Positions 53,640-62,039 of a stretch of 64,000 nt of DNA are shown in pieces (positions within the stretch are counted from its first letter, which is position 1; every line of letters starts with the position of its first letter). The notes beneath the pieces are model-generated. The model saw only the letters and a program-made list of their open reading frames with translations. It ran no database searches and had not been told where the DNA came from. The translations under genes and the position numbers were made by a program. The DNA comes from Acidobacteriota bacterium (GTDB lineage: Bacteria > Acidobacteriota > UBA890 > WLXD01): NCBI GenBank assembly GCA_965248695.1, contig CBDFKD010000002.1, forward strand, positions 480,001 through 544,000, given 5' to 3'.

Positions 53640-53876
53640 TCAGTCGTCGCGTACCCAATCGAAGCTCGTCCGACACGCCCTGCAGTGATACTGCGCCACC
53701 ATCATGTGGCATCCGTAGATCGACACCGGCTCGGTGTCCAGGCTGTCACAGAAAACGCAGCACACCGCTGGCATGGCGTCACGGGGCACCACCGACTCGT
53801 GGCGAGGGGACTTCGCCGTCAGCCTCACGACCTTGCCGGCAGCCGACTCCGACACTGGTAGCCTGTTGCCGGCCAC
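53640..53876 (-). CDS. Stand-alone PaaD-like zinc-ribbon protein
   Basis: CVFCDSLDT...YG......YHCRACRTSFDW matches the PaaD C-terminal Zn ribbon pattern; GTG start overlaps the paaC stop (alternative ATG 53775). Confidence 0.7.
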   Translation of the reverse strand: MAGNRLPVSESAAGKVVRLTAKSPRHESVVPRDAMPAVCCVFCDSLDTEPVSIYGCHMMVAQYHCRACRTSFDWVRDD

Positions 53877-54715
53877 TAGTCGGCCACGCCGATGGCGCGC
53901 GCGTGAGCGCCGGTGAGCATGGCGAACGACTCGGCGTCGAAGTCCGGCGTACCGATGCGCCGCGTGCTCTCGTTCCAGTTGCCCCAGTCGATGTCGCAGC
54001 CAACGGTTCCGACCTCGTTCTCGTCGACCGGCAAGCGCACCTTGCCGGCGAACAACGGTGTGATCACCTCCAAGTAGCGGTCGCGCAGGGGACGCGCGCC
54101 GACGTCGATCACATCAGCTGCTGCGAGTCGGTCGAGCGCGTTATCTCCATCGCGGCCAAACCACGCCACGCACTGGGGAAAAACGGTGGTGGCGGCAGCG
54201 CGAACCGCCTCGACGATGTGGTCAGGACCATCGAGCAATCGCTCCATCCACGCCCGCGCGTGCAGTGAGTGGTAACTCTCCTCGGAAACCGCCTTCCTCA
54301 GCCGCTGAGCCAGCAGCCGCACGTTACCGGCGGTTGCCGCCTCGAGATTCACGGTGAGGAGATTGTCGATCAACGCGTTGAGCACAACGACCTCCGCCCA
54401 GCCCCTGGCAGGGCGGTCGAGGGCCGCCAGGCATCTCCAGGCGTCGGCGTCCTCGCGTCGCAGCTCGGTGCGCGGATCCTCGGGCAACTCGGCGAGGACC
54501 CCGCGTAACAAGCGGGCGTGGCCGAGCTCGTATTGCGCCATCGCCGAAATCGACACGTTGGCCTCGAGCTCGGGCGCGCCAGTACACCACTCCGCATAGC
54601 GGAGCCCGAGCACCCGTTTGTTGTCGGCCAGCGCAAGCAGCCAATCGGCCAGGTCACGGCGAACGCTCGCCGGCAAGTCGCCGGGGCGCTCGACTGCGCT
54701 CACGCTCGGCTCCAC
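53876..54715 (-). CDS. paaC: Phenylacetyl-CoA epoxidase beta-subunit-like protein
   Basis: LADNKRVLGLRYAEWCTGAPELEANVS..AMAQYELGHAR, EESYH..HA..W. Confidence 0.8.
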   Translation of the reverse strand: MEPSVSAVERPGDLPASVRRDLADWLLALADNKRVLGLRYAEWCTGAPELEANVSISAMAQYELGHARLLRGVLAELPEDPRTELRREDADAWRCLAALDRPARGWAEVVVLNALIDNLLTVNLEAATAGNVRLLAQRLRKAVSEESYHSLHARAWMERLLDGPDHIVEAVRAAATTVFPQCVAWFGRDGDNALDRLAAADVIDVGARPLRDRYLEVITPLFAGKVRLPVDENEVGTVGCDIDWGNWNESTRRIGTPDFDAESFAMLTGAHARAIGVAD

Positions 54716-54746
54716 CGCCGGACAAGCGGTGCACCGATGCGGACGA

Positions 54747-54995
54747 TCATTCCGTTGACTCGATGAGCGGCACCAGATCGAGAACCGTGATCAGCGCGCT
54801 GCGCGGTACGACCATCACCTCGACCCAGTTCTCCTCGTCGTAGGTGTTGCGCGCGTACACCTTCGCGAAGTCGTCGTTCGGCGCCCTCACCGTGCCGATG
54901 TGAGCCAGGGCATCGCGCCGCTCCTTGCGGGCGAACACCTCGTACAGCTTGCGCCTCATCGGGCGTATCGAGGAGTTCGGGATGTCGGCCGTCAA
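54747..54995 (-). CDS. paaB: Phenylacetyl-CoA epoxidase small subunit B-like protein
   Basis: YEVFARK....LAHIGTVRAP....AKVYARNTY....WVEVMVVPRS; TTG 54995 overlaps the upstream stop (alternative ATG 54959). Confidence 0.8.
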   Translation of the reverse strand: MTADIPNSSIRPMRRKLYEVFARKERRDALAHIGTVRAPNDDFAKVYARNTYDEENWVEVMVVPRSALITVLDLVPLIESTE

Positions 54996-55396
54996 AGGGC
55001 GATCCCGTAGGCACGCATGCGCTGTCGCCCGTCCGGGGAGATGCGCGACGCGGCCCAGTTGACCTCCCACGTCTCGTTTATCTCCACTGATTCGACATCG
55101 GCCTCGCGCAGGAGCCGCTCCCTGATGTCGTCTTTGATCATGCTCACGGCCGGGCAGGCGGTCGAAGTGAAGGTGACATCGACCTCGACACGGTTTGCCG
55201 TGCAACGAATGTCACAGATCAGGCCCAGGTCAACGACGCTCACCGGAATCTCCGGATCGAGCACCTCGCGCAACGCTTCCCACAACGTGGTCGCTTCGGG
55301 ACGGATCGTACGAGCCACTGCGGGCGCCTGCTGGCGACGCAGCGCATCCACCGTCCGATTACACGGGGAGCCGGGGCGCGCCGTGGTGCACGACAT
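54992..55396 (-). CDS. paaD: DUF59/PaaD-like metal-sulfur cluster assembly factor
   Basis: LREVLDPEIPVSVVDLGLI, TFTSTACPA, W....ISPDGRQRMRAYGI; ATG overlaps the paaA stop. Confidence 0.8.
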   Translation of the reverse strand: MSCTTARPGSPCNRTVDALRRQQAPAVARTIRPEATTLWEALREVLDPEIPVSVVDLGLICDIRCTANRVEVDVTFTSTACPAVSMIKDDIRERLLREADVESVEINETWEVNWAASRISPDGRQRMRAYGIAL

Positions 55397-56355
55397 CAGA
55401 TGTCCTTGAACATCCAGCCAAAATCGCCTTTGGAGCGCTGGAGATCCTCGATCATGGCCTCGTTTCGAGGACCGCGCGCCTTCCAGCGCTTCACCACCTG
55501 GTCCCAACCGATGTGCTCATCCCAGAGCCATCGCTTGGCTTCGGCGTCGAACTGGAGCGGCAGGTCGTACTCGAGCTCCCAAGCAGTGTCGTCGCCGTTT
55601 CGATGCGCCGGCACGCGCAACCCGATGCTCTCGCAGAACGGCACTACCTCGGTCATCCAGCCCTGCCGGAGCTCGTCGTTCGTAAGCCCCTTCATCTTGT
55701 ATTCGAGTTGCCCGCTATGAGTCTTCAAGTTGTCCGGTAACCCGAACCACTCAACGGTCAACGGGAACATCCAATCAACGGCCTGTTGCACTAGCTCCCG
55801 CCCACTATCGCTGCTATCGACGATCTTCTTCATCCAGCGCCGACCGTGCAGGAGATGGAAGGTCTCCTCCTTGCTCACCTTTACCAGACCCCGTTTCCAG
55901 GGGCCGTACGAGGTGTTCTCGAAGACGTCCCCGAGCAAACAAAACCCTGCCTGGTCGTAGAGAGCGTTCGCAACACACAGCTCAACCCAGGAATCCAGCG
56001 GCACGTCGAACGCGTACGGATAACGGAACTCGTGCGGCTGGCGCTCGTACATGAGCCAGTCGCGATCGACGCCCAGCTCTTCCAGCACACGGTAGGCGAT
56101 GTGCGCGTGGGCAAGCTCATCCTGGATGATCGCCATCGCCGAGATCATGCTGTTGACGGACGGGGCCTTGCGCGCCGCGTAGTAGTACGCCGGCGCGCTC
56201 AACAGCTCGGTGTCACCGGAGACCGTGACGATGTGGCGCAGCTCGCGCTTGTACTCCTCGGTCATCTCACTGACCGACTCGATCAGGCCACCTTCATGGA
56301 CCCGCTCGCGAAGCAGTGCATCGGCGCCCGTGCTCAAGGATACCTCCGGCGACAT
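55396..56355 (-). CDS. paaA: Phenylacetyl-CoA epoxidase alpha-subunit-like diiron protein (divergent)
   Basis: Ferritin-like diiron ligands DTE, QDELAHA, KEETFH; SYGPW, QQAVDWMFP...WFG, NDELRQ. Confidence 0.8.
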   Translation of the reverse strand: MSPEVSLSTGADALLRERVHEGGLIESVSEMTEEYKRELRHIVTVSGDTELLSAPAYYYAARKAPSVNSMISAMAIIQDELAHAHIAYRVLEELGVDRDWLMYERQPHEFRYPYAFDVPLDSWVELCVANALYDQAGFCLLGDVFENTSYGPWKRGLVKVSKEETFHLLHGRRWMKKIVDSSDSGRELVQQAVDWMFPLTVEWFGLPDNLKTHSGQLEYKMKGLTNDELRQGWMTEVVPFCESIGLRVPAHRNGDDTAWELEYDLPLQFDAEAKRWLWDEHIGWDQVVKRWKARGPRNEAMIEDLQRSKGDFGWMFKDI

Positions 56356-56490: not shown

Positions 56491-56718
56491 TCAGACAGCT
56501 GCTTGGCGATGCGTCGGCGAGTCGCCCGAGACCCCCGCGTGAAGAAGCCCCTCGAGCCGCTGACCGCAAGGCTCGCAGACGAGACAATGCGCCAGGATAG
56601 CCACCGCGTGGCCGCTGGCCAGCGTGCCGCGGACGTAGTGTCGGAACTCGATCTCAGACGGATGACCTTCGTCCGGCCGGATCGGCGACGTACCGGAACG
56701 GCTCGGGTTGGCCGTCAA
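56491..56718 (-). CDS. Stand-alone ZAS (zf-HC2) zinc-binding microprotein 2
   Basis: TTG 56718 overlaps the upstream stop (TTGA); HPSEIEFRHYVRGTL...HCLVCEPCG; about 75 aa, no TM segment. Confidence 0.65.
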   Translation of the reverse strand: MTANPSRSGTSPIRPDEGHPSEIEFRHYVRGTLASGHAVAILAHCLVCEPCGQRLEGLLHAGVSGDSPTHRQAAV

Positions 56719-56933
56719 TGAGTCGTGCCTGAGGCGGCGTAGGCTTCGCCAAGGCCGGCGTACGACCGTTCCAGGCCAGCGGCTGCTCGCAGCCACAGCA
56801 GTCCACGCGCTTGATTGCCGCAGGTCTCACAGACCAGGCAATGTCGATGCAGGCGCCGCGTCTCTTCGGGGGAAAGCGCGCCGCGGGTAAACGCGACGAG
56901 CTCCAGCGCTTCGGGATGGATCGTACATTTCAT
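56715..56933 (-). CDS. Stand-alone ZAS (zf-HC2) zinc-binding microprotein 1
   Basis: RBS AAGGA before ATG 56933; HPEALELVAFTRGAL...HCLVCETCG; 72 aa, no TM segment. Confidence 0.72.
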   Translation of the reverse strand: MKCTIHPEALELVAFTRGALSPEETRRLHRHCLVCETCGNQARGLLWLRAAAGLERSYAGLGEAYAASGTTH

Positions 56934-56988
56934 CGAGGATGTCCTTTGCCAGCCGCGCCCGCACCGTGGTGCTGTCCGGCGCGGGACG

Positions 56989-57020
56989 GCGTGCGGAGCC
57001 GATTTGGTGGCTCCGCACGC
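56989..57020 (-). terminator. 12-bp perfect hairpin between the thioredoxin-fold gene and the ZAS microproteins
   Basis: gcgtgcggagcc-gatttggt-ggctccgcacgc; no U-tract, so a terminator or mRNA-stabilising role is uncertain. Confidence 0.45.
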
Positions 57021-57049
57021 AGCACCCGGCTCGGTGTCGAACGGCGCTC

Positions 57050-57667
57050 CTATGGCCGGTCCAGTGAGGCGTCCGTGGTGAGTGCCACGGAACTGACCAC
57101 CGGGGCGGTCATCGCAGAGCGGGCCCAAGTGCGCACCACCTCCTGATCGGCGTCGTTCAGCACGCCGTCCCAGGCGGCGATGCCGCGGGTCAGTGGGTCG
57201 ATCCCCAGAGTGCTCGGATACGCGGTCAGGCCCAACAGCGGCAGCACTGCCTTGTCGACGAGCCGAACCGGCAAGTCGAGCTCATGCGTGGCGAGAAACT
57301 CCTGCGTTTCGTCAGGCGTACTCACCGACAGCACGTAGATCTCCGGCGCTCGTGGACCGAGCTCGGCGATCTGCGAAGCCAGGCTCCGCCACTCCGGCAT
57401 GTTTTGCTCGCAGAAGGGGCACGCCGTGCTCAACACGAACAGCATCAGCGGCCGCGGGCGACCGCTGACATCGAGCGCAGACGGCTCTCCGGTCAACGTC
57501 CGGCCCGGGATATCAACCGGCGCTGTGAGCGGACCGTTGATCCTCGAGGCCTGCCCGTGGGTGACGTAGTTGTGGTGCATCATCTGGCCTAGCCAGGCAG
57601 TCCCGGCGACCAGTACCAGGATGAGCCCCACCTCGGCGATCTTGGCAATCCGGGGCATCGACGTCAT
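57050..57667 (-). CDS. Membrane-anchored thioredoxin-fold thiol:disulfide oxidoreductase (TlpA/MauD-like)
   Basis: N-terminal TM helix, STACPFCEQNMPEW (CxxC), YPST cis-Pro loop; 3 nt after the peptide gene. Confidence 0.8.
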   Translation of the reverse strand: MTSMPRIAKIAEVGLILVLVAGTAWLGQMMHHNYVTHGQASRINGPLTAPVDIPGRTLTGEPSALDVSGRPRPLMLFVLSTACPFCEQNMPEWRSLASQIAELGPRAPEIYVLSVSTPDETQEFLATHELDLPVRLVDKAVLPLLGLTAYPSTLGIDPLTRGIAAWDGVLNDADQEVVRTWARSAMTAPVVSSVALTTDASLDRP

Positions 57668-57670
57668 CTC

Positions 57671-57895
57671 CTAGACGACGCAGATGCTTCTGCCTCTGGA
57701 GCCGTCCTCACAGACCCAAACGCAACCGCAGCCAGCGCTACCGTACGCGGCACAATCGCCGCAGTTGTCCGAGCACTCCTGACCACAGGAGCTATGCGAC
57801 GCCTCGACCTGTTCGGCCTGAAACGACAGGCCGAAGACCAAGAGAATCGCCCAGCTGATGAGCAGTACCTTCTTCCAGTTGATTGAGCGTCGCAC
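57671..57895 (-). CDS. Secreted cysteine-rich small peptide (8 Cys in a ~42-aa mature region)
   Basis: Strong RBS GGAGGAG before GTG; signal peptide MRRSINWKKVLLISWAILLVFGLSFQAEQVEA, then SHSSCGQECSDNCGDCAAYGSAGCGCVWVCEDGSRGRSICVV. Confidence 0.78.
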   Translation of the reverse strand: MRRSINWKKVLLISWAILLVFGLSFQAEQVEASHSSCGQECSDNCGDCAAYGSAGCGCVWVCEDGSRGRSICVV

Positions 57896-57943
57896 CGTAC
57901 TCCTCCGGTAACGAGTGATGGGTTTGCTATCACCGAACGGAGG

Positions 57944-57959
57944 AGCAAGACGGATGCCG
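57944..57959 (-). promoter_or_regulatory. Sigma54 (-24/-12) promoter
   Basis: Minus strand CGGCATCCGTCTTGCT versus consensus TGGCAC-N5-TTGCW, with exact GG-N10-GC spacing, ~50 nt upstream of the peptide start; a sigma54 activator is encoded 1.8 kb away. Confidence 0.65.
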
Positions 57960-58088
57960 AAAGGACGCGACGCTCAGTCGCTGCGGGGCAACTCTTGTCG
58001 GGGCAAGAACTTACGGGTGATGGTCCGCAGCAGCCATGGCTTCAGGGGCCGGTGGCAAGTAACGGCGGGTCGCAATCCCGCCGGACGC

Positions 58089-58110
58089 CCCCGCCCGGCG
58101 GCGGGCGGGG
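58089..58110 (-). terminator. GC-rich hairpin after the anti-sigma gene
   Basis: ccccgcccg-gcgg-cgggcgggg 9-bp stem starting 12 nt past the stop codon; no U-tract. Confidence 0.35.
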
Positions 58111-58121
58111 CACGGCGACGG

Positions 58122-58964
58122 CTAGCTGAGCTCGAGTAGAAGCTGGTTGACTGCTTCCTGGACCCTGTCACCGTCGGATGACCCGTCGTGCTGGACGATA
58201 CGAGCCAACAACGTGCGAGCAGCGGCGTACTCGCCGGCCTGCACTTGGAGTCGAGCCAGGTAATAGGCAGCGGCGCGCCCCGCCGTACCCCACTCACTGT
58301 CCGAATCCTGCAACCTCGACACGTGGGCCTCGAGCGCCTGGCGGGCGGCCGGCATTCGGCGTCCCTCGAAAAACAGCGCCAAGCCGAGCAGGAGTGTCCC
58401 GTCTGGGTGATACACGCTGGCGAATTCGGCGAGATGGCTGCCCGCCTCACCGTAGCGAGCATCGCCGAGCGCGCCAACGCCGGCCAGCAGGGCGATGGAC
58501 CTATCAGCCTCTGCCCCTGAGCCCGTAACCACACGGCCGGGCTCGTGCACAGCCTCCAACATGAAAGCAATCGCGCCGAGGATTCGAGCGTCCGAGGGTG
58601 TCACTTCGAGATAGTCGCGGCCGGCGAGCTCGGGCGGAGGCGCTGCCCCCGGCGAGGCCGCGACGGCGGCGTGATTGTCGGTCGAACCGGCAACGGATCG
58701 TTCGGTGCCAAACCCGACGAACCAGACCGCAGCACCGACGAGCAGCACCGCTGCGGCAGCTGCGGCGACAGACCGATGTGCGTACCACGGCGCCTGGTTC
58801 TGTCGCGGCGCGGCGCGGCGCAGGAGGATCACGGCGGCCAGCTGATCGCCGCAATCGCGGCATGCAAAACAATGCTCACGCACCTCATCGGCGCGGTCTT
58901 GGCTCAGTGAGCCACGAACATAGTCGACCATGTCCAGAGGATCTGCGTGCATCCCCACACTCAT
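58122..58964 (-). CDS. Membrane-bound ZAS anti-sigma factor with extracytoplasmic TPR-like domain
   Basis: N-terminal HADPLDMVDYVRGSL...HCFACRDCG; TM helix VAAAAAAVLLVGAAVWFVGF; TPR-like helices (AAYYLARLQVQAGEYAAARTLL); ATGA coupling to the sigma gene. Confidence 0.8.
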   Translation of the reverse strand: MSVGMHADPLDMVDYVRGSLSQDRADEVREHCFACRDCGDQLAAVILLRRAAPRQNQAPWYAHRSVAAAAAAVLLVGAAVWFVGFGTERSVAGSTDNHAAVAASPGAAPPPELAGRDYLEVTPSDARILGAIAFMLEAVHEPGRVVTGSGAEADRSIALLAGVGALGDARYGEAGSHLAEFASVYHPDGTLLLGLALFFEGRRMPAARQALEAHVSRLQDSDSEWGTAGRAAAYYLARLQVQAGEYAAARTLLARIVQHDGSSDGDRVQEAVNQLLLELS

Positions 58965-59520
58965 GTCTGCCCGCCACCGTTCGATTCCACACTCACTCGA
59001 CGTCCGAGTTGTGACAACGCTGCCTGCAACCGGCTGTGTACCGTGCTGATCGGCGCGTCCTGAATCGCCGCCACTTCGCGTAGCTTCATCGGCGGATCCC
59101 GCAATACAAGCAGCTCGAGCACCTCGCGATGGACCGGTTCGAGACCATCGAGCAGCCGGAGCGCCGTCTCCACGAGCTTCCGTTGGGTGCGCGACCTCTC
59201 CGCACCGAGCAACATTCGCAAAGGATCGGAAGCAACTTCCTCGCTCGGCGCGGGTGCAGATACCTCATCCAACGGCCGAGTCGGCGCCGTTGCTGGAACA
59301 GTTGCAATGCTGCAGTGCGAACCGCCGTGAGCACGTAGTTATGGGCGTCCTGCTCGCTGCCGAACGTGGGGCGCGCATGCACGGTTCGAGCGACGGCTTC
59401 CTGAACAACTTCCTCCGCGTCCGTCACATTACCAGTGAGGGACAACGCGTACCCTCTCCAACGATGAAAGCGGGAGAGCCACGCCTTTTCGATGTAGTCG
59501 TAGGAAGTTATCGATGCCAC
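58961..59520 (-). pseudogene. ECF RNA polymerase sigma factor, frameshifted at ~59275 between regions 2 and 4
   Basis: Region 2 (YALSLTGNVTDAEEVVQEA...YVLTAVR) lies in ORF 59520-59086 and region 4 (LEPVHREVLEL...LREVAAIQDAPISTVHSRLQAA) in ORF 59272-58961; one extra C (CTC [C]GG CCG TTG) would join them. Confidence 0.78.
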
Positions 59521-59737
59521 GGGATCGCAGTCCTCCGAAGGCCAAGTTGCACGACCAGCGCATTCTATCCTTGTCCGGTTGCCGCAACGGCGTCAATGGG
59601 CCGTTCGGAAACCGCCGGACCACCGGCCTCTGACCACAAAAAACTTCTACAAATACGCCCGACAACAACGTCGCGCCCGATGCTTCCAGGCGCTGTGCCG
59701 GTTACGATTCCATTGGAGGCAGAATCACGGATGGCTC

Positions 59738-60715
59738 GTGCGACGTACCCCAGGTCAGCCTCAGCCGGCGCAACGCAGCGAAAGCCGCTTACTCGGCGGC
59801 AGCGACACGATGGGTCAGGTTCGCGATCAGATCAAGGTCGCCGCGCAGTTCAGCGAACCGGTGCTCGTGTTGGGCGAGACCGGTGTCGGCAAGGAGCTGG
59901 TGGCGCAGCAGATCCACAGCCGCAGCCCGCGGTCTCAGGCGAGAGCCGGGCTCCAGGTCGTCAACTGCGCCGGGCTGAGCCCCGATGTGCTCGCCGCCGA
60001 GCTGTTTGGCCACCGCCGCGGTGCGTTCACCGGTGCTGATCGTGATCGCAGCGGTCGGATCAGGTCGGCAGACGGCTCGACCATGGTCCTCGATGAGATC
60101 AGCGAAGCTCCTCCGTCACTCCAAGCCACCGTCCTGCGTACCGTGGAGTATGGCGAAGTGCAGCCGGTCGGTTCGGATTTTCTTTTCCGCGTCGATGTGC
60201 GCTTCGTCGCCACCAGCAACAGAACGCTGACAGAGCTCGGGCTCAGTGATGCGTTCCGCACCGACCTGTTACACCGCCTTGCGGCATTTGTAATCGAAAT
60301 CCCGCCACTGCGGCACCGGTCTGCTGATCTGGACGAGATCGCCGCCGCGTACCTCGCAACACTCGCCGATCGGTACGGGCGCGAGTGCGAATTGAGCGTC
60401 GGAGGCATGGCCCTCCTGCACGAGCATTCGTTCCCGGGCAACGTACGCGAGCTGCGACAAATTCTGTTGCGAGCCTATGCTGCATCCACCGGCGGTCACA
60501 TCGCCCCGGACGCAATTGCGGCAGCAATCCTCCCGACCGACCACGAAGCCGCTGGCATCTCCGACATCAGACCGCAGACGCTGTCCTACCGCACATTCCT
60601 CAACGCGTTCCGCGCCGAGACCGGCATGTCGCCGAGTGGCTTCCAGAGACGCGCCCTCGCCACCGTTCGAGCACCGGCGGTCGAAGCCCGGACGCCTTAT
60701 CGGCGCTCCGCCTGA
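59738..60715 (+). CDS. Sigma54-dependent activator (bEBP AAA+) without a sensory domain and with an AraC-like C-terminal tail
   Basis: LLGGSDTM, GETGVGKE, VNCAG, ELFGHRRGAFTGA, VLDEI, FRTDLLHRL, FPGNVREL; tail SYRTFLNAFRAETGMSP. Start uncertain: GTG 59738, or ATG 59731 with a frameshift. Confidence 0.85.
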   Translation: MRRTPGQPQPAQRSESRLLGGSDTMGQVRDQIKVAAQFSEPVLVLGETGVGKELVAQQIHSRSPRSQARAGLQVVNCAGLSPDVLAAELFGHRRGAFTGADRDRSGRIRSADGSTMVLDEISEAPPSLQATVLRTVEYGEVQPVGSDFLFRVDVRFVATSNRTLTELGLSDAFRTDLLHRLAAFVIEIPPLRHRSADLDEIAAAYLATLADRYGRECELSVGGMALLHEHSFPGNVRELRQILLRAYAASTGGHIAPDAIAAAILPTDHEAAGISDIRPQTLSYRTFLNAFRAETGMSPSGFQRRALATVRAPAVEARTPYRRSA

Positions 60716-61176: not shown

Positions 61177-61973
61177 CTATTCCGTCGTCGCGGTCTTGCG
61201 TCGGCGGTAACACGTCCACATTTCGCGAACCCAGTCAGCAACCGGACGAACCGCCACCTCTTCCAGGAATCGAGTCATCTCTTCCGGGGGGTATCCCGGC
61301 GGTAGCGGCGAGTTCTCGATCGCTCGCGCGTCCCAAGGCGATCCGGGTGGGCGAACGGCGGGCCCGAGCACGGCGGCTGCGGTCAGATCGGCGGCCCGGT
61401 GAAATGGTCTCCGACCAGGAACGGCCCGGTGACCGTCGAGATCCACTCCTCCAGCTGGTCGAGGGCGGTCAGCAGCTCAGCGCGCCGGCGAACGGTGTTG
61501 TCGGCGGTGAGGGTGCGCCGCCTGCGCATGCCGCGCTGAACGAGCGGCACCGAGAGCCGTACCAGCAAGCGCCCGGCCGGCCCCAGACCCTGCTGGAAGA
61601 CGTGCCGAAGCACCTCCGGATGCTGCGTGATGTGGAAGTACAGGTAGCGCGAGACGTTTGGGGCACAGTGCTCGTCGCAGAAATCCTCGATTTCGGCAGC
61701 CCTGACAGCGTGCTCGGCATCGTGCGGGAAGAGGGGCGGATCCGGGCGAATCCGATCGAGGTAATGAAGGATATCCGTCGAGTCCTTGACCACCACATTG
61801 GTGTCGGAATCGACCAGAACCGGCACCGTCGACGTTCCAGCCACACGCTTGACGGTGAGGATGTGGGCACCGGGAACCAGCAGCCGCGAGCGATACGGTA
61901 GCCCCTTGTAGTCGAGAGCCCAGCGCACCTTCTCGCTGAAGTGCGATACGTACAGATGGTAGAGCGTCAGCAC
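61177..61973 (-). pseudogene. Glutathione S-transferase family protein, frameshifted at ~61397
   Basis: SHFSEKVRWALDYKGL, TVPVL, DSTDI; FLVGDHFT joins AADLTAAAVLGP in another frame at ACC GG GCC GCC GAT. May be a sequencing error. Confidence 0.78.
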
Positions 61974-62039
61974 GGCGCGAACTCGCGATAACCTATCGTA
62001 ACGGCTTGACCTGACCGCGCCACGCAACAGGATGGAAGC

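Follow-up and report, generated by a model that had tools for sequence, protein, structure and literature searches.

A 64,000-nucleotide stretch of an Acidobacteriota genome (the window, G000:C2:480001-544000; the host genome, G000, is of 5.89 Mb and 96% complete) contains a cassette that represents a real, conserved and apparently undescribed variant of extracytoplasmic function (ECF) sigma/anti-sigma signalling with a candidate ligand. Its core is formed by the genes for an ECF sigma factor, for an anti-sigma with a zinc-binding anti-sigma (ZAS) domain, a transmembrane (TM) helix and a periplasmic tetratricopeptide repeat (TPR) domain, and for a cysteine-rich mini-protein with a putative signal peptide. 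A sigma54-dependent bacterial enhancer-binding protein (bEBP), a thioredoxin-fold protein and two ZAS-only genes are accessory, because 12 of 28 loci show no bEBP and the ZAS-only genes were seen only in f1, the family that includes the window. A sequence-only reading of the window had proposed that all of these parts belong to one module; conserved synteny bears the module out, with the core three genes as members and the remaining ones as optional additions.

A cassette conserved across the host class

Peptide genes (n = 29) are present in 17 of the 26 genomes of the host class, and sigma factors of the same clade in 20 of the 26, with up to eight copies per genome. In 27 of the 28 peptide loci tabulated, which come from 17 genomes and two families, a gene for a ZAS-TM-TPR anti-sigma lies upstream on the same strand, the remaining locus being visible for only 1.2 kb upstream. 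All four same-genus genomes, and also G007, retain the full order with both ZAS-only genes, the orthologous loci having been found through the thioredoxin-fold protein; G006, G009 and G010 keep the second ZAS-only gene (ZAS2) only. Two loci found after the profiles had been built fit the pattern, L174 with an anti-sigma and L181 with a sigma54 box, a propeller and a bEBP, and a metagenome scan gave eight loci, mostly of the host lineage. When the anti-sigma profile was run against the phylum, 17 of 401 genomes matched, five of them outside the class, and no peptide, TlpA or bEBP match was seen at those five loci, with six candidates scored per genome, which is not to be read as absence. A search of genome contigs with the sigma alignment returned, among the matches listed, only generic ECF sigmas of 22-41% identity and was not used.

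Gene order, strands and coordinates of the cassette were all verified from an open reading frame (ORF) listing and family scans of the window.

59567..59596, minus strand: putative sigma70-like promoter of the sigma/anti-sigma operon (TTGAC, 18-nt spacer, AAGGAT)
58961..59520, minus strand: ECF sigma factor, probable pseudogene (Pfam PF04542, PF04545; 1-nt frameshift near 59279)
58122..58964, minus strand: membrane anti-sigma factor, 280 aa (ZAS, hydrophobic helix, periplasmic TPR-like domain)
58088..58110, minus strand: GC-rich inverted repeat (from folding; no U-tract)
57944..57959, minus strand: sigma54 -24/-12 box (GG at 57958/57, GC at 57946/45; predicted start about 57933)
57671..57895, minus strand: putatively exported mini-protein of 74 aa with eight Cys (unmatched in Pfam and NCBIfam; conserved, purifying selection)
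57050..57667, minus strand: TlpA/ResA-like thioredoxin-fold protein (CPFC), predicted to be membrane-anchored (Pfam AhpC-TSA, Redoxin)
56989..57020, minus strand: 12-bp RNA hairpin between the thioredoxin gene and ZAS1 (kept in 6/6 genomes)
56715..56933, minus strand: ZAS-only microprotein 1 (ZAS1), 72 aa, paralog of the anti-sigma N-terminus
56491..56718, minus strand: ZAS-only microprotein 2 (ZAS2), 75 aa, TTG start (ChrR N-terminal match, E 5e-4)
59680..59708, plus strand: putative sigma70-like promoter of the bEBP gene (xTGxTT, 17-nt spacer, TACGAT)
59738..60715, plus strand: sigma54 bEBP without N-terminal regulatory domain (PF00158, E 3e-49; helix-turn-helix (HTH) lost)

Every part of the order noted in the sequence-only reading, from the ECF sigma through the ZAS/TPR anti-sigma, the box, the peptide, the thioredoxin and the hairpin to the two ZAS genes, is in place, and the sigma54 start it predicted at 57933 agrees with the GG and GC positions of the box. 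The start of the bEBP, placed there at 59579, is most likely the GTG at 59738, which is the start position of its relatives. The ORFs of ZAS1 and ZAS2 overlap by 4 nt, with the ZAS2 start on the ZAS1 stop. PaaA/PaaC/PaaD-like ring-epoxidase genes at window positions 53876-56355 flank the cassette in family f1 loci only and look like neighbours, not cassette parts.

Three layouts can be distinguished. In type I (the window and eight further loci) a head-less bEBP is accompanied by a sigma54 box immediately 5' of the peptide gene. In type II (six loci and the truncated L119) the box is followed by an NHL propeller, the peptide and often a TlpA protein, with a convergent bEBP of ~530 aa. In type III (11 loci) there is neither bEBP nor box, and the peptide adjoins the anti-sigma and is followed by a TlpA protein, a propeller or nothing. 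In the bEBP-less loci L120, L124, L127, L128, L129 and L133 the peptide match starts ~10 nt or less from the anti-sigma stop, which fits coupled, stoichiometric expression. An orphan locus in G003 (L148:6148-7768) holds an anti-sigma-like gene, a sigma54 box and a peptide, without sigma or bEBP. G000 carries a single peptide gene, up to five peptide loci occur per genome elsewhere, and G021 has a tandem peptide duplicate. Additional small, exported Cys-rich proteins, of other patterns, are encoded beside propeller- or TlpA-like genes and genes for sigmas of the cassette's clade (L024:9886-12759, L028:7260-9837, L125:8578-11353, G011); transposase-like insertions break L024 and L028.

Predicted complex of the mini-protein and the anti-sigma

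The mature peptide probably binds the periplasmic domain of the anti-sigma, as judged from complex prediction with anti-sigma residues 112-280 and peptide residues 33-74. The complex scored 0.74, against 0.03 for the best control, a mark that was reached by 116 of 157 solved pairs and by 2 of 215 mismatched ones (counts that are rough for our own alignments). At least 88% of the contacts are shared between the prediction runs, and the partner has a predicted local distance difference test score (pLDDT) of at least 78. The predicted interface is made by residues 131-139, 223-228 and 260-268 of the anti-sigma and by residues 36-54, 59-61 and 65-69 of the peptide. This is in line with the earlier suggestion that the peptide may be read by the TPR domain. 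We know of no solved complex of this peptide/TPR anti-sigma kind. Within the genus the mature peptide and the periplasmic domain of the anti-sigma change fastest (54% and 53% identity, against 71-94% for the cytoplasmic domains and the TlpA protein), and the anti-sigma positions in the predicted interface are more variable than others, with 29 of 82 identical as against 317 of 584 elsewhere.

The mini-protein

Export of the mini-protein is suggested by its sequence pattern, with residues 33-74 (42 aa, net charge -3) as the predicted mature part, which was modelled as a helix and three strands with a pLDDT of 82. Pooled dN/dS between G000 and same-genus genomes is 0.12 for the leader and 0.36 for the mature part. 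The leader (window 57800-57895) is better conserved than the mature part within the genus, at 90% as against 54% identity; this is unusual for a plain signal peptide, and the leader may be a retained membrane anchor.

The peptide of the window has no match in Pfam or NCBIfam. Its family comprises 85 clusters (50% identity, E ≤ 0.001), a few of which are unrelated repeat proteins; about 80 remain, with no informative name or Pfam family. PAN/apple-like repeat proteins match the peptide profile through many repeats and are taken as a lead only, as is the best score of 0.81 in an Atlas search. Foldseek found nothing at E ≤ 0.001 with either the full or the mature peptide, and a sequence search of the PDB gave no relative (best E 0.31). 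The best Z scores in the VIA fold comparison were 4.3, where the leader helix dominates, and 3.6, and none of 36 peptides had a Pfam match to MucB/RseB.

The anti-sigma, the ZAS-only proteins and the thioredoxin-fold partner

The anti-sigma matches zf-HC2 and TPR_19, both under the curated Pfam cut-off, and its family profile matches consensus TPR structures with an E of 2e-19; no CHAT domain was found in the 280-aa protein with Pfam. Its gene lies directly downstream of the sigma gene, the start overlapping the sigma stop by 4 nt, whereas the ZAS-only genes are not so placed. The ZAS domain is of the HHCC type (H6, H31, C35, C38) and contains the HxxxCxxC motif. The four ligands do not vary among the 12 anti-sigmas and 14 ZAS-only proteins aligned; in the type II members L114-L118 the motif is partly gone. 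Oxidative release has been tied to CHCC-type ZAS domains (PMC4960319), and that all three ZAS domains here are of the HHCC type therefore argues against cytoplasmic redox sensing.

ZAS1 is 35% identical to the anti-sigma over 52 aa (E 6e-6; hhalign probability 98%). It is found in the window's genus (g1) and in G007 and is absent from genus g3, and ZAS2 is found in G001-G004, G006, G007, G009, G010 and the metagenome loci L153 and L154. Pooled dN/dS between G000 and same-genus genomes is 0.15 for ZAS1 and 0.20 for ZAS2. Both are genuine ZAS paralogs under purifying selection, and, with the peptide also under purifying selection, the small ORFs proposed from the sequence are real. The 12-bp hairpin upstream of ZAS1 has two of 13 pairs changed on both sides, lacks a U-tract and has no match in Rfam.

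The thioredoxin-fold protein has the predicted N-terminal anchor, thioredoxin fold, CxxC and conserved proline of TlpA/ResA proteins, with weak MauD/ResA matches and a CxxC that is invariant in 12 of 12 aligned sequences. Assignment to MauD failed (TIGR02661, 22 bits against a cut-off of 188.6), and there were no mau genes among the neighbours scanned. Propeller-like proteins that follow the peptide in L128, L129, L133 and L174 share an N-terminal WLGxxxxxN anchor with the TlpA proteins. The anchor shared with these four type III propellers suggests that the two are exchangeable input partners and weakens the idea of the TlpA protein as a mere peptide-folding enzyme.

The bEBP and the sigma54 promoter

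The proposed link between the sigma54 box and the bEBP holds well, since all 16 loci that have a bEBP also have the box, as against one of the 12 that lack a bEBP, the one being the orphan L148. The genome background of the box is 0.023 per kb per strand, giving a chance of about 0.04 per locus, and GGCA-N6-TTGC is invariant in eight of eight aligned intergenic regions of 47% mean identity. Two type III loci match a looser pattern, within the coding sequence of the anti-sigma. G000 has a gene for RpoN. In a tree with one genome as outgroup, 19 locus bEBPs fall on one side of a branch with 97/93 support, against 10 other bEBPs of G000, and those of types I and II form separate sub-groups.

The hairpin that had been noted upstream of the box is a GC inverted repeat that folds at about 58110-58088, without a U-tract or a terminator call. 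It sits about 130-150 nt upstream of the box and may be a binding site of the bEBP, that is an upstream activating sequence (UAS), or a weak terminator. In the type II loci L113, L027, L114, L117, L118 and L119 a conserved palindrome, GTGCCGA..TCGGCAC, lies about 90-150 nt upstream of the box (105, far more than the 64-68 of shuffles) and is likewise a candidate UAS or terminator. Among type I loci a motif search for the UAS was not above shuffles at width 10 and was modestly above them at width 16 (93 against 78-84), which is not convincing. Words resembling integration host factor sites are present in 6 of 18 promoters (background not computed).

A 14-bp A-rich motif lies between the divergent promoters at window positions 59637-59650 and is single-copy in G000. 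It is found in the six relatives in which the bEBP is followed by an AraC-like gene, whole or as a remnant, whereas 14 other loci lack it, and is a candidate AraC site, although the pattern also follows ancestry.

A decaying copy in this genome

The frameshift that had been seen in the sigma gene is present near 59279 and absent from the intact orthologs. Region 2 (Sigma70_r2) is encoded in 59520-59290 and region 4 in 59272-58961, in different frames, whereas both lie in one polypeptide in the orthologs of G001, G002, G004, G006, G007 and G010. No NCBIfam sigma model exceeded its cut-off on either half. The lesion is a gap of 1 nt relative to seven relatives, and it recurs in the contigs of four runs, which match the window without gaps; the runs are of a single sample, possibly the source of the assembly. 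A sequencing error is disfavoured by these contigs and by the lack of a homopolymer, even though two nearby genes also have frame breaks, and the frameshift is very probably real. As assembled, a glutathione S-transferase gene (window 61383-62027) is broken in frame near 61400 when compared with its G001 ortholog of 264 aa, and a further break is found at G000:C2:570652.

The bEBP has intact Walker A, Walker B and GAFTGA motifs. The C-terminal Fis-type HTH_8 is absent, because of a deletion of ~0.65 kb near 60583 (661 nt relative to G003, 611 nt relative to G001) that also removed most of a downstream AraC-like gene and that the sequence-only reading missed; from 60584 the AAA+ domain is fused to the last 43 aa of this AraC-like gene. 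Relatives, G003 among them, have HTH_8: it is present in L016, L113, L114, L117 and L131 and weak in L024. A second, stand-alone AraC-like gene (G000:C2:5715586-5715963), 56% identical to the deleted one, adjoins an integrase-like ORF.

With a frameshifted sigma and a bEBP without its HTH, the copy in the window is probably non-functional, a point that the sequence-only reading missed: the circuit is probably dead in this genome and the copy decaying. In G003, the nearest relative, the sigma gene carries another lesion, a premature TAA near its start as read in the assembly. The dN between G000 and G003 is still very low, suggesting that the gene losses are recent.

A proposed mechanism and its alternatives

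The account that we favour, while giving it somewhat less than an even chance, is that the mini-protein caps the anti-sigma in the periplasm, much as RseB/MucB do, and that the sigma54 operon is a shut-off arm. The sigma, the ZAS-TM-TPR anti-sigma and the exported, disulfide-rich mini-protein would then form a three-gene transmembrane switch. The bound cap would protect the anti-sigma and the sigma would be held off; on loss, misfolding or reduction of the cap the anti-sigma would be open to proteolysis and the sigma released. The membrane-anchored thioredoxin-fold protein or the six-bladed propeller may fold, reduce or present the cap and in this way act as the input. Cap production would in many loci be governed by a dedicated bEBP and a sigma54 promoter, and in family f1 the operon would also make soluble ZAS proteins to mop up free sigma. 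Here we infer the export, the direction of regulation, the proteolysis and the roles of the partner and the ZAS proteins. A 4-kDa Sec-type protein in a two-membrane cell is expected to stay periplasmic, and it is this likely residence, together with the coupled expression with the anti-sigma and the anti-sigma paralogs in the same operon, that suggests a cap.

Several points weigh against this account. An activating ligand would yield an identical binding model. The mirror-tree test gave no specific signal (rho 0.29 for mature part and periplasmic domain, 0.30 for leader and periplasmic domain, 0.63 for mature part and ZAS), and the interface segments align poorly beyond family f1, so that the binding mode may not be general. 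The target promoter of the ECF sigma was not found. Only 24 of 42 sigma genes of the clade have a peptide in view; among those without an assigned one, seven are cut by contig ends, two are ambiguous and three have none, and six more of a distant sub-clade have none. L125, L127, L130 and L148 have neither a TlpA protein nor a propeller behind the peptide. Most of the loci counted also served to build the profiles, related genomes are not independent, and in 6 of the 12 bEBP-less loci less than 2.5 kb is available on one side.

In the main rival account, itself rather unlikely, the mini-protein is instead an activating ligand, a pheromone-like or cell-contact key whose binding to the TPR domain inactivates the anti-sigma, with the sigma54 arm as amplifier, the ZAS-only proteins ending the pulse and the variable interface giving kin-specific signalling. 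TPR domains serve as peptide-pheromone receptors in the RRNPP family, and the complex model fits this equally well. Peptide and receptor surface change fast even among single-copy orthologs, and the multiple peptide loci, the tandem duplicate of G021 and the G003 orphan with its own sigma54 box would also be in keeping with it. Nevertheless, dN/dS is well below 1 (0.29-0.36), neither an exporter nor an importer was seen near the cassette in the ORF listings of the loci, coupling to the anti-sigma in bEBP-less loci would mean constant self-activation, and one operon would have to combine an activator with inhibitors. On a broader and similarly speculative view, mini-protein keys and TPR anti-sigma locks with co-diverging surfaces may form private channels, several per genome and possibly intercellular, gated by periplasmic redox through the thioredoxin partner and amplified by the clade of sigma54 activators, a peptide-sensing mode of ECF control that is not in the literature searched.

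How the two sigma factors are connected bears on a third possibility. The two-sigma circuit that had been proposed agrees with the tracking of the bEBP by the sigma54 arm, but the putative sigma70-like promoters at both the sigma and the bEBP genes argue against a simple cascade from ECF sigma to bEBP. The spacing TTGAC-N19-AxGAT is found 5' of the sigma in 10 of 11 f1 loci with a bEBP beside the sigma (it is missing in L131, the second G010 locus), and the spacing of the bEBP promoter is kept in genus g1, G007 and G008. A strict promoter scan made no call at 59567..59596, and inspection by eye upstream of 36 sigma genes found no shared ECF autoregulatory motif. A linear cascade, in which the ECF sigma would transcribe a constitutively active bEBP that turns on the sigma54 operon, the reverse of HrpRS to HrpL, is accordingly rather improbable. 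While the bEBP lacks a regulatory domain, is divergent from the sigma in f1 and has an AAACTT-N16-CGAC-like spacing upstream in three of five g1 genomes, neither G007 nor G008 retains this -10 element, and both retain the sigma70-like TACGAT box; the A-rich motif tracks the AraC-like gene, and the type II bEBPs are convergent with an N-terminal extension of about 120-150 aa.

Slightly less credit is due to the proposal that it is the head-less bEBP, and not the sigma, on which the ZAS-only proteins act in trans, in the way of PspA and HrpV. Inhibition in trans is usual for bEBPs that lack a cis-regulatory domain (PMC7057263), and the ZAS-only genes were seen only alongside head-less bEBPs, a pattern that also follows ancestry; against this, they encode clear paralogs of the sigma-binding ZAS domain, and L024 has a head-less bEBP with no ZAS-only gene within 16 kb.

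Least probable of all is an effector, a defensin-like antimicrobial (an option raised earlier) or a metal/redox scavenger folded by the thioredoxin protein, with the anti-sigma contact immunity-like or an artefact of modelling: the CxxxC helix and CxC strand resemble defensin spacing, Pfam Defensin_like matches 2 of 36 members (E 0.005) and termicin aligns over 33 residues (Z 2.7, rmsd 2.1, rank 38, tied with unrelated folds), but 21 of 26 mature peptides are negatively charged (net charge -10 to +1), no ABC exporter or protease was seen, unlike at actifensin loci (PMC6989792), the linkage to the anti-sigma is constant (27 of 28) and the complex controls scored 0.03 or less.

Comparison with known systems

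The range found is one uncultured class, and the copy described here is broken. The periplasmic signal has, to our knowledge, been identified for only a minority of transmembrane anti-sigma factors, and gene context with controlled structure prediction here points to a concrete 42-residue ligand, so that binding and direction become testable. The many natural pairs bring their own specificity controls and might serve synthetic biology as orthogonal switches. In agreement with the sequence-only reading, no description of this combination was found in the literature searched, most subscription papers lying outside its reach.

RseB and MucB are encoded right behind the anti-sigma. They bind its periplasmic domain in pairs that are not interchangeable (PMC7400510). 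They are large, have two domains and show no homology to the 42-aa mini-protein, which they resemble in function alone; of the two partners in the complex RseA/MucA are the smaller, and their systems are without a sigma54 arm.

DdvS/DdvA of Myxococcus xanthus has the same ECF sigma and single-pass anti-sigma with cytoplasmic ZAS and periplasmic TPR parts (PMC11506125). DdvA, however, has a ~900-aa periplasmic TPR-CHAT protease and controls a defence island (PMC11506125), whereas the periplasmic part here is of ~170-190 aa with no CHAT match, the predicted partner is a small exported Cys protein, and PADLOC found no defence model apart from generic bEBP ones. ECF35 anti-sigmas also have one TM helix and sometimes periplasmic TPRs, but the group is described as 100% Proteobacteria with DUF3520 neighbours, and the part of the supplement available mentions no Cys peptide, thioredoxin or bEBP (PMC7826278 supplement); 14 of its 16 tetratricopeptide entries could be compared and have no matching context.

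With RsrA/ChrR the ZAS domains share HxxxCxxC and a fourth ligand 25 residues upstream, and the soluble single-domain form is that of RsrA (PMC4960319). Unlike in those systems, there are three HHCC-type ZAS domains, and the soluble copies are extra paralogs that end another operon and are not beside the sigma. Actifensin-type bacteriocins are, like the mini-protein, small Cys-rich peptides with a leader and variable between conserved cysteines, but actifensin has six cysteines and ABC-transporter loci (PMC6989792), as against eight cysteines, mostly anionic peptides and anti-sigma linkage here.

HrpRS-HrpV-HrpL and PspF-PspA resemble the cassette in the bEBP without cis-regulatory domain and the sigma54 promoter, and HrpL also in placing an ECF sigma in the circuit (PMC7057263; ECF32 in the PMC7826278 supplement). 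The sigma54 promoter of hrp serves to transcribe the ECF gene, while that of the cassette is placed after the anti-sigma gene and serves the peptide operon, the sigma gene here having a sigma70-like promoter. By the features tested the cassette is none of DdvS/DdvA, RseB/MucB or HrpRS/HrpL, and its loci show an ECF switch gaining a sigma54 arm and extra soluble anti-sigma paralogs.

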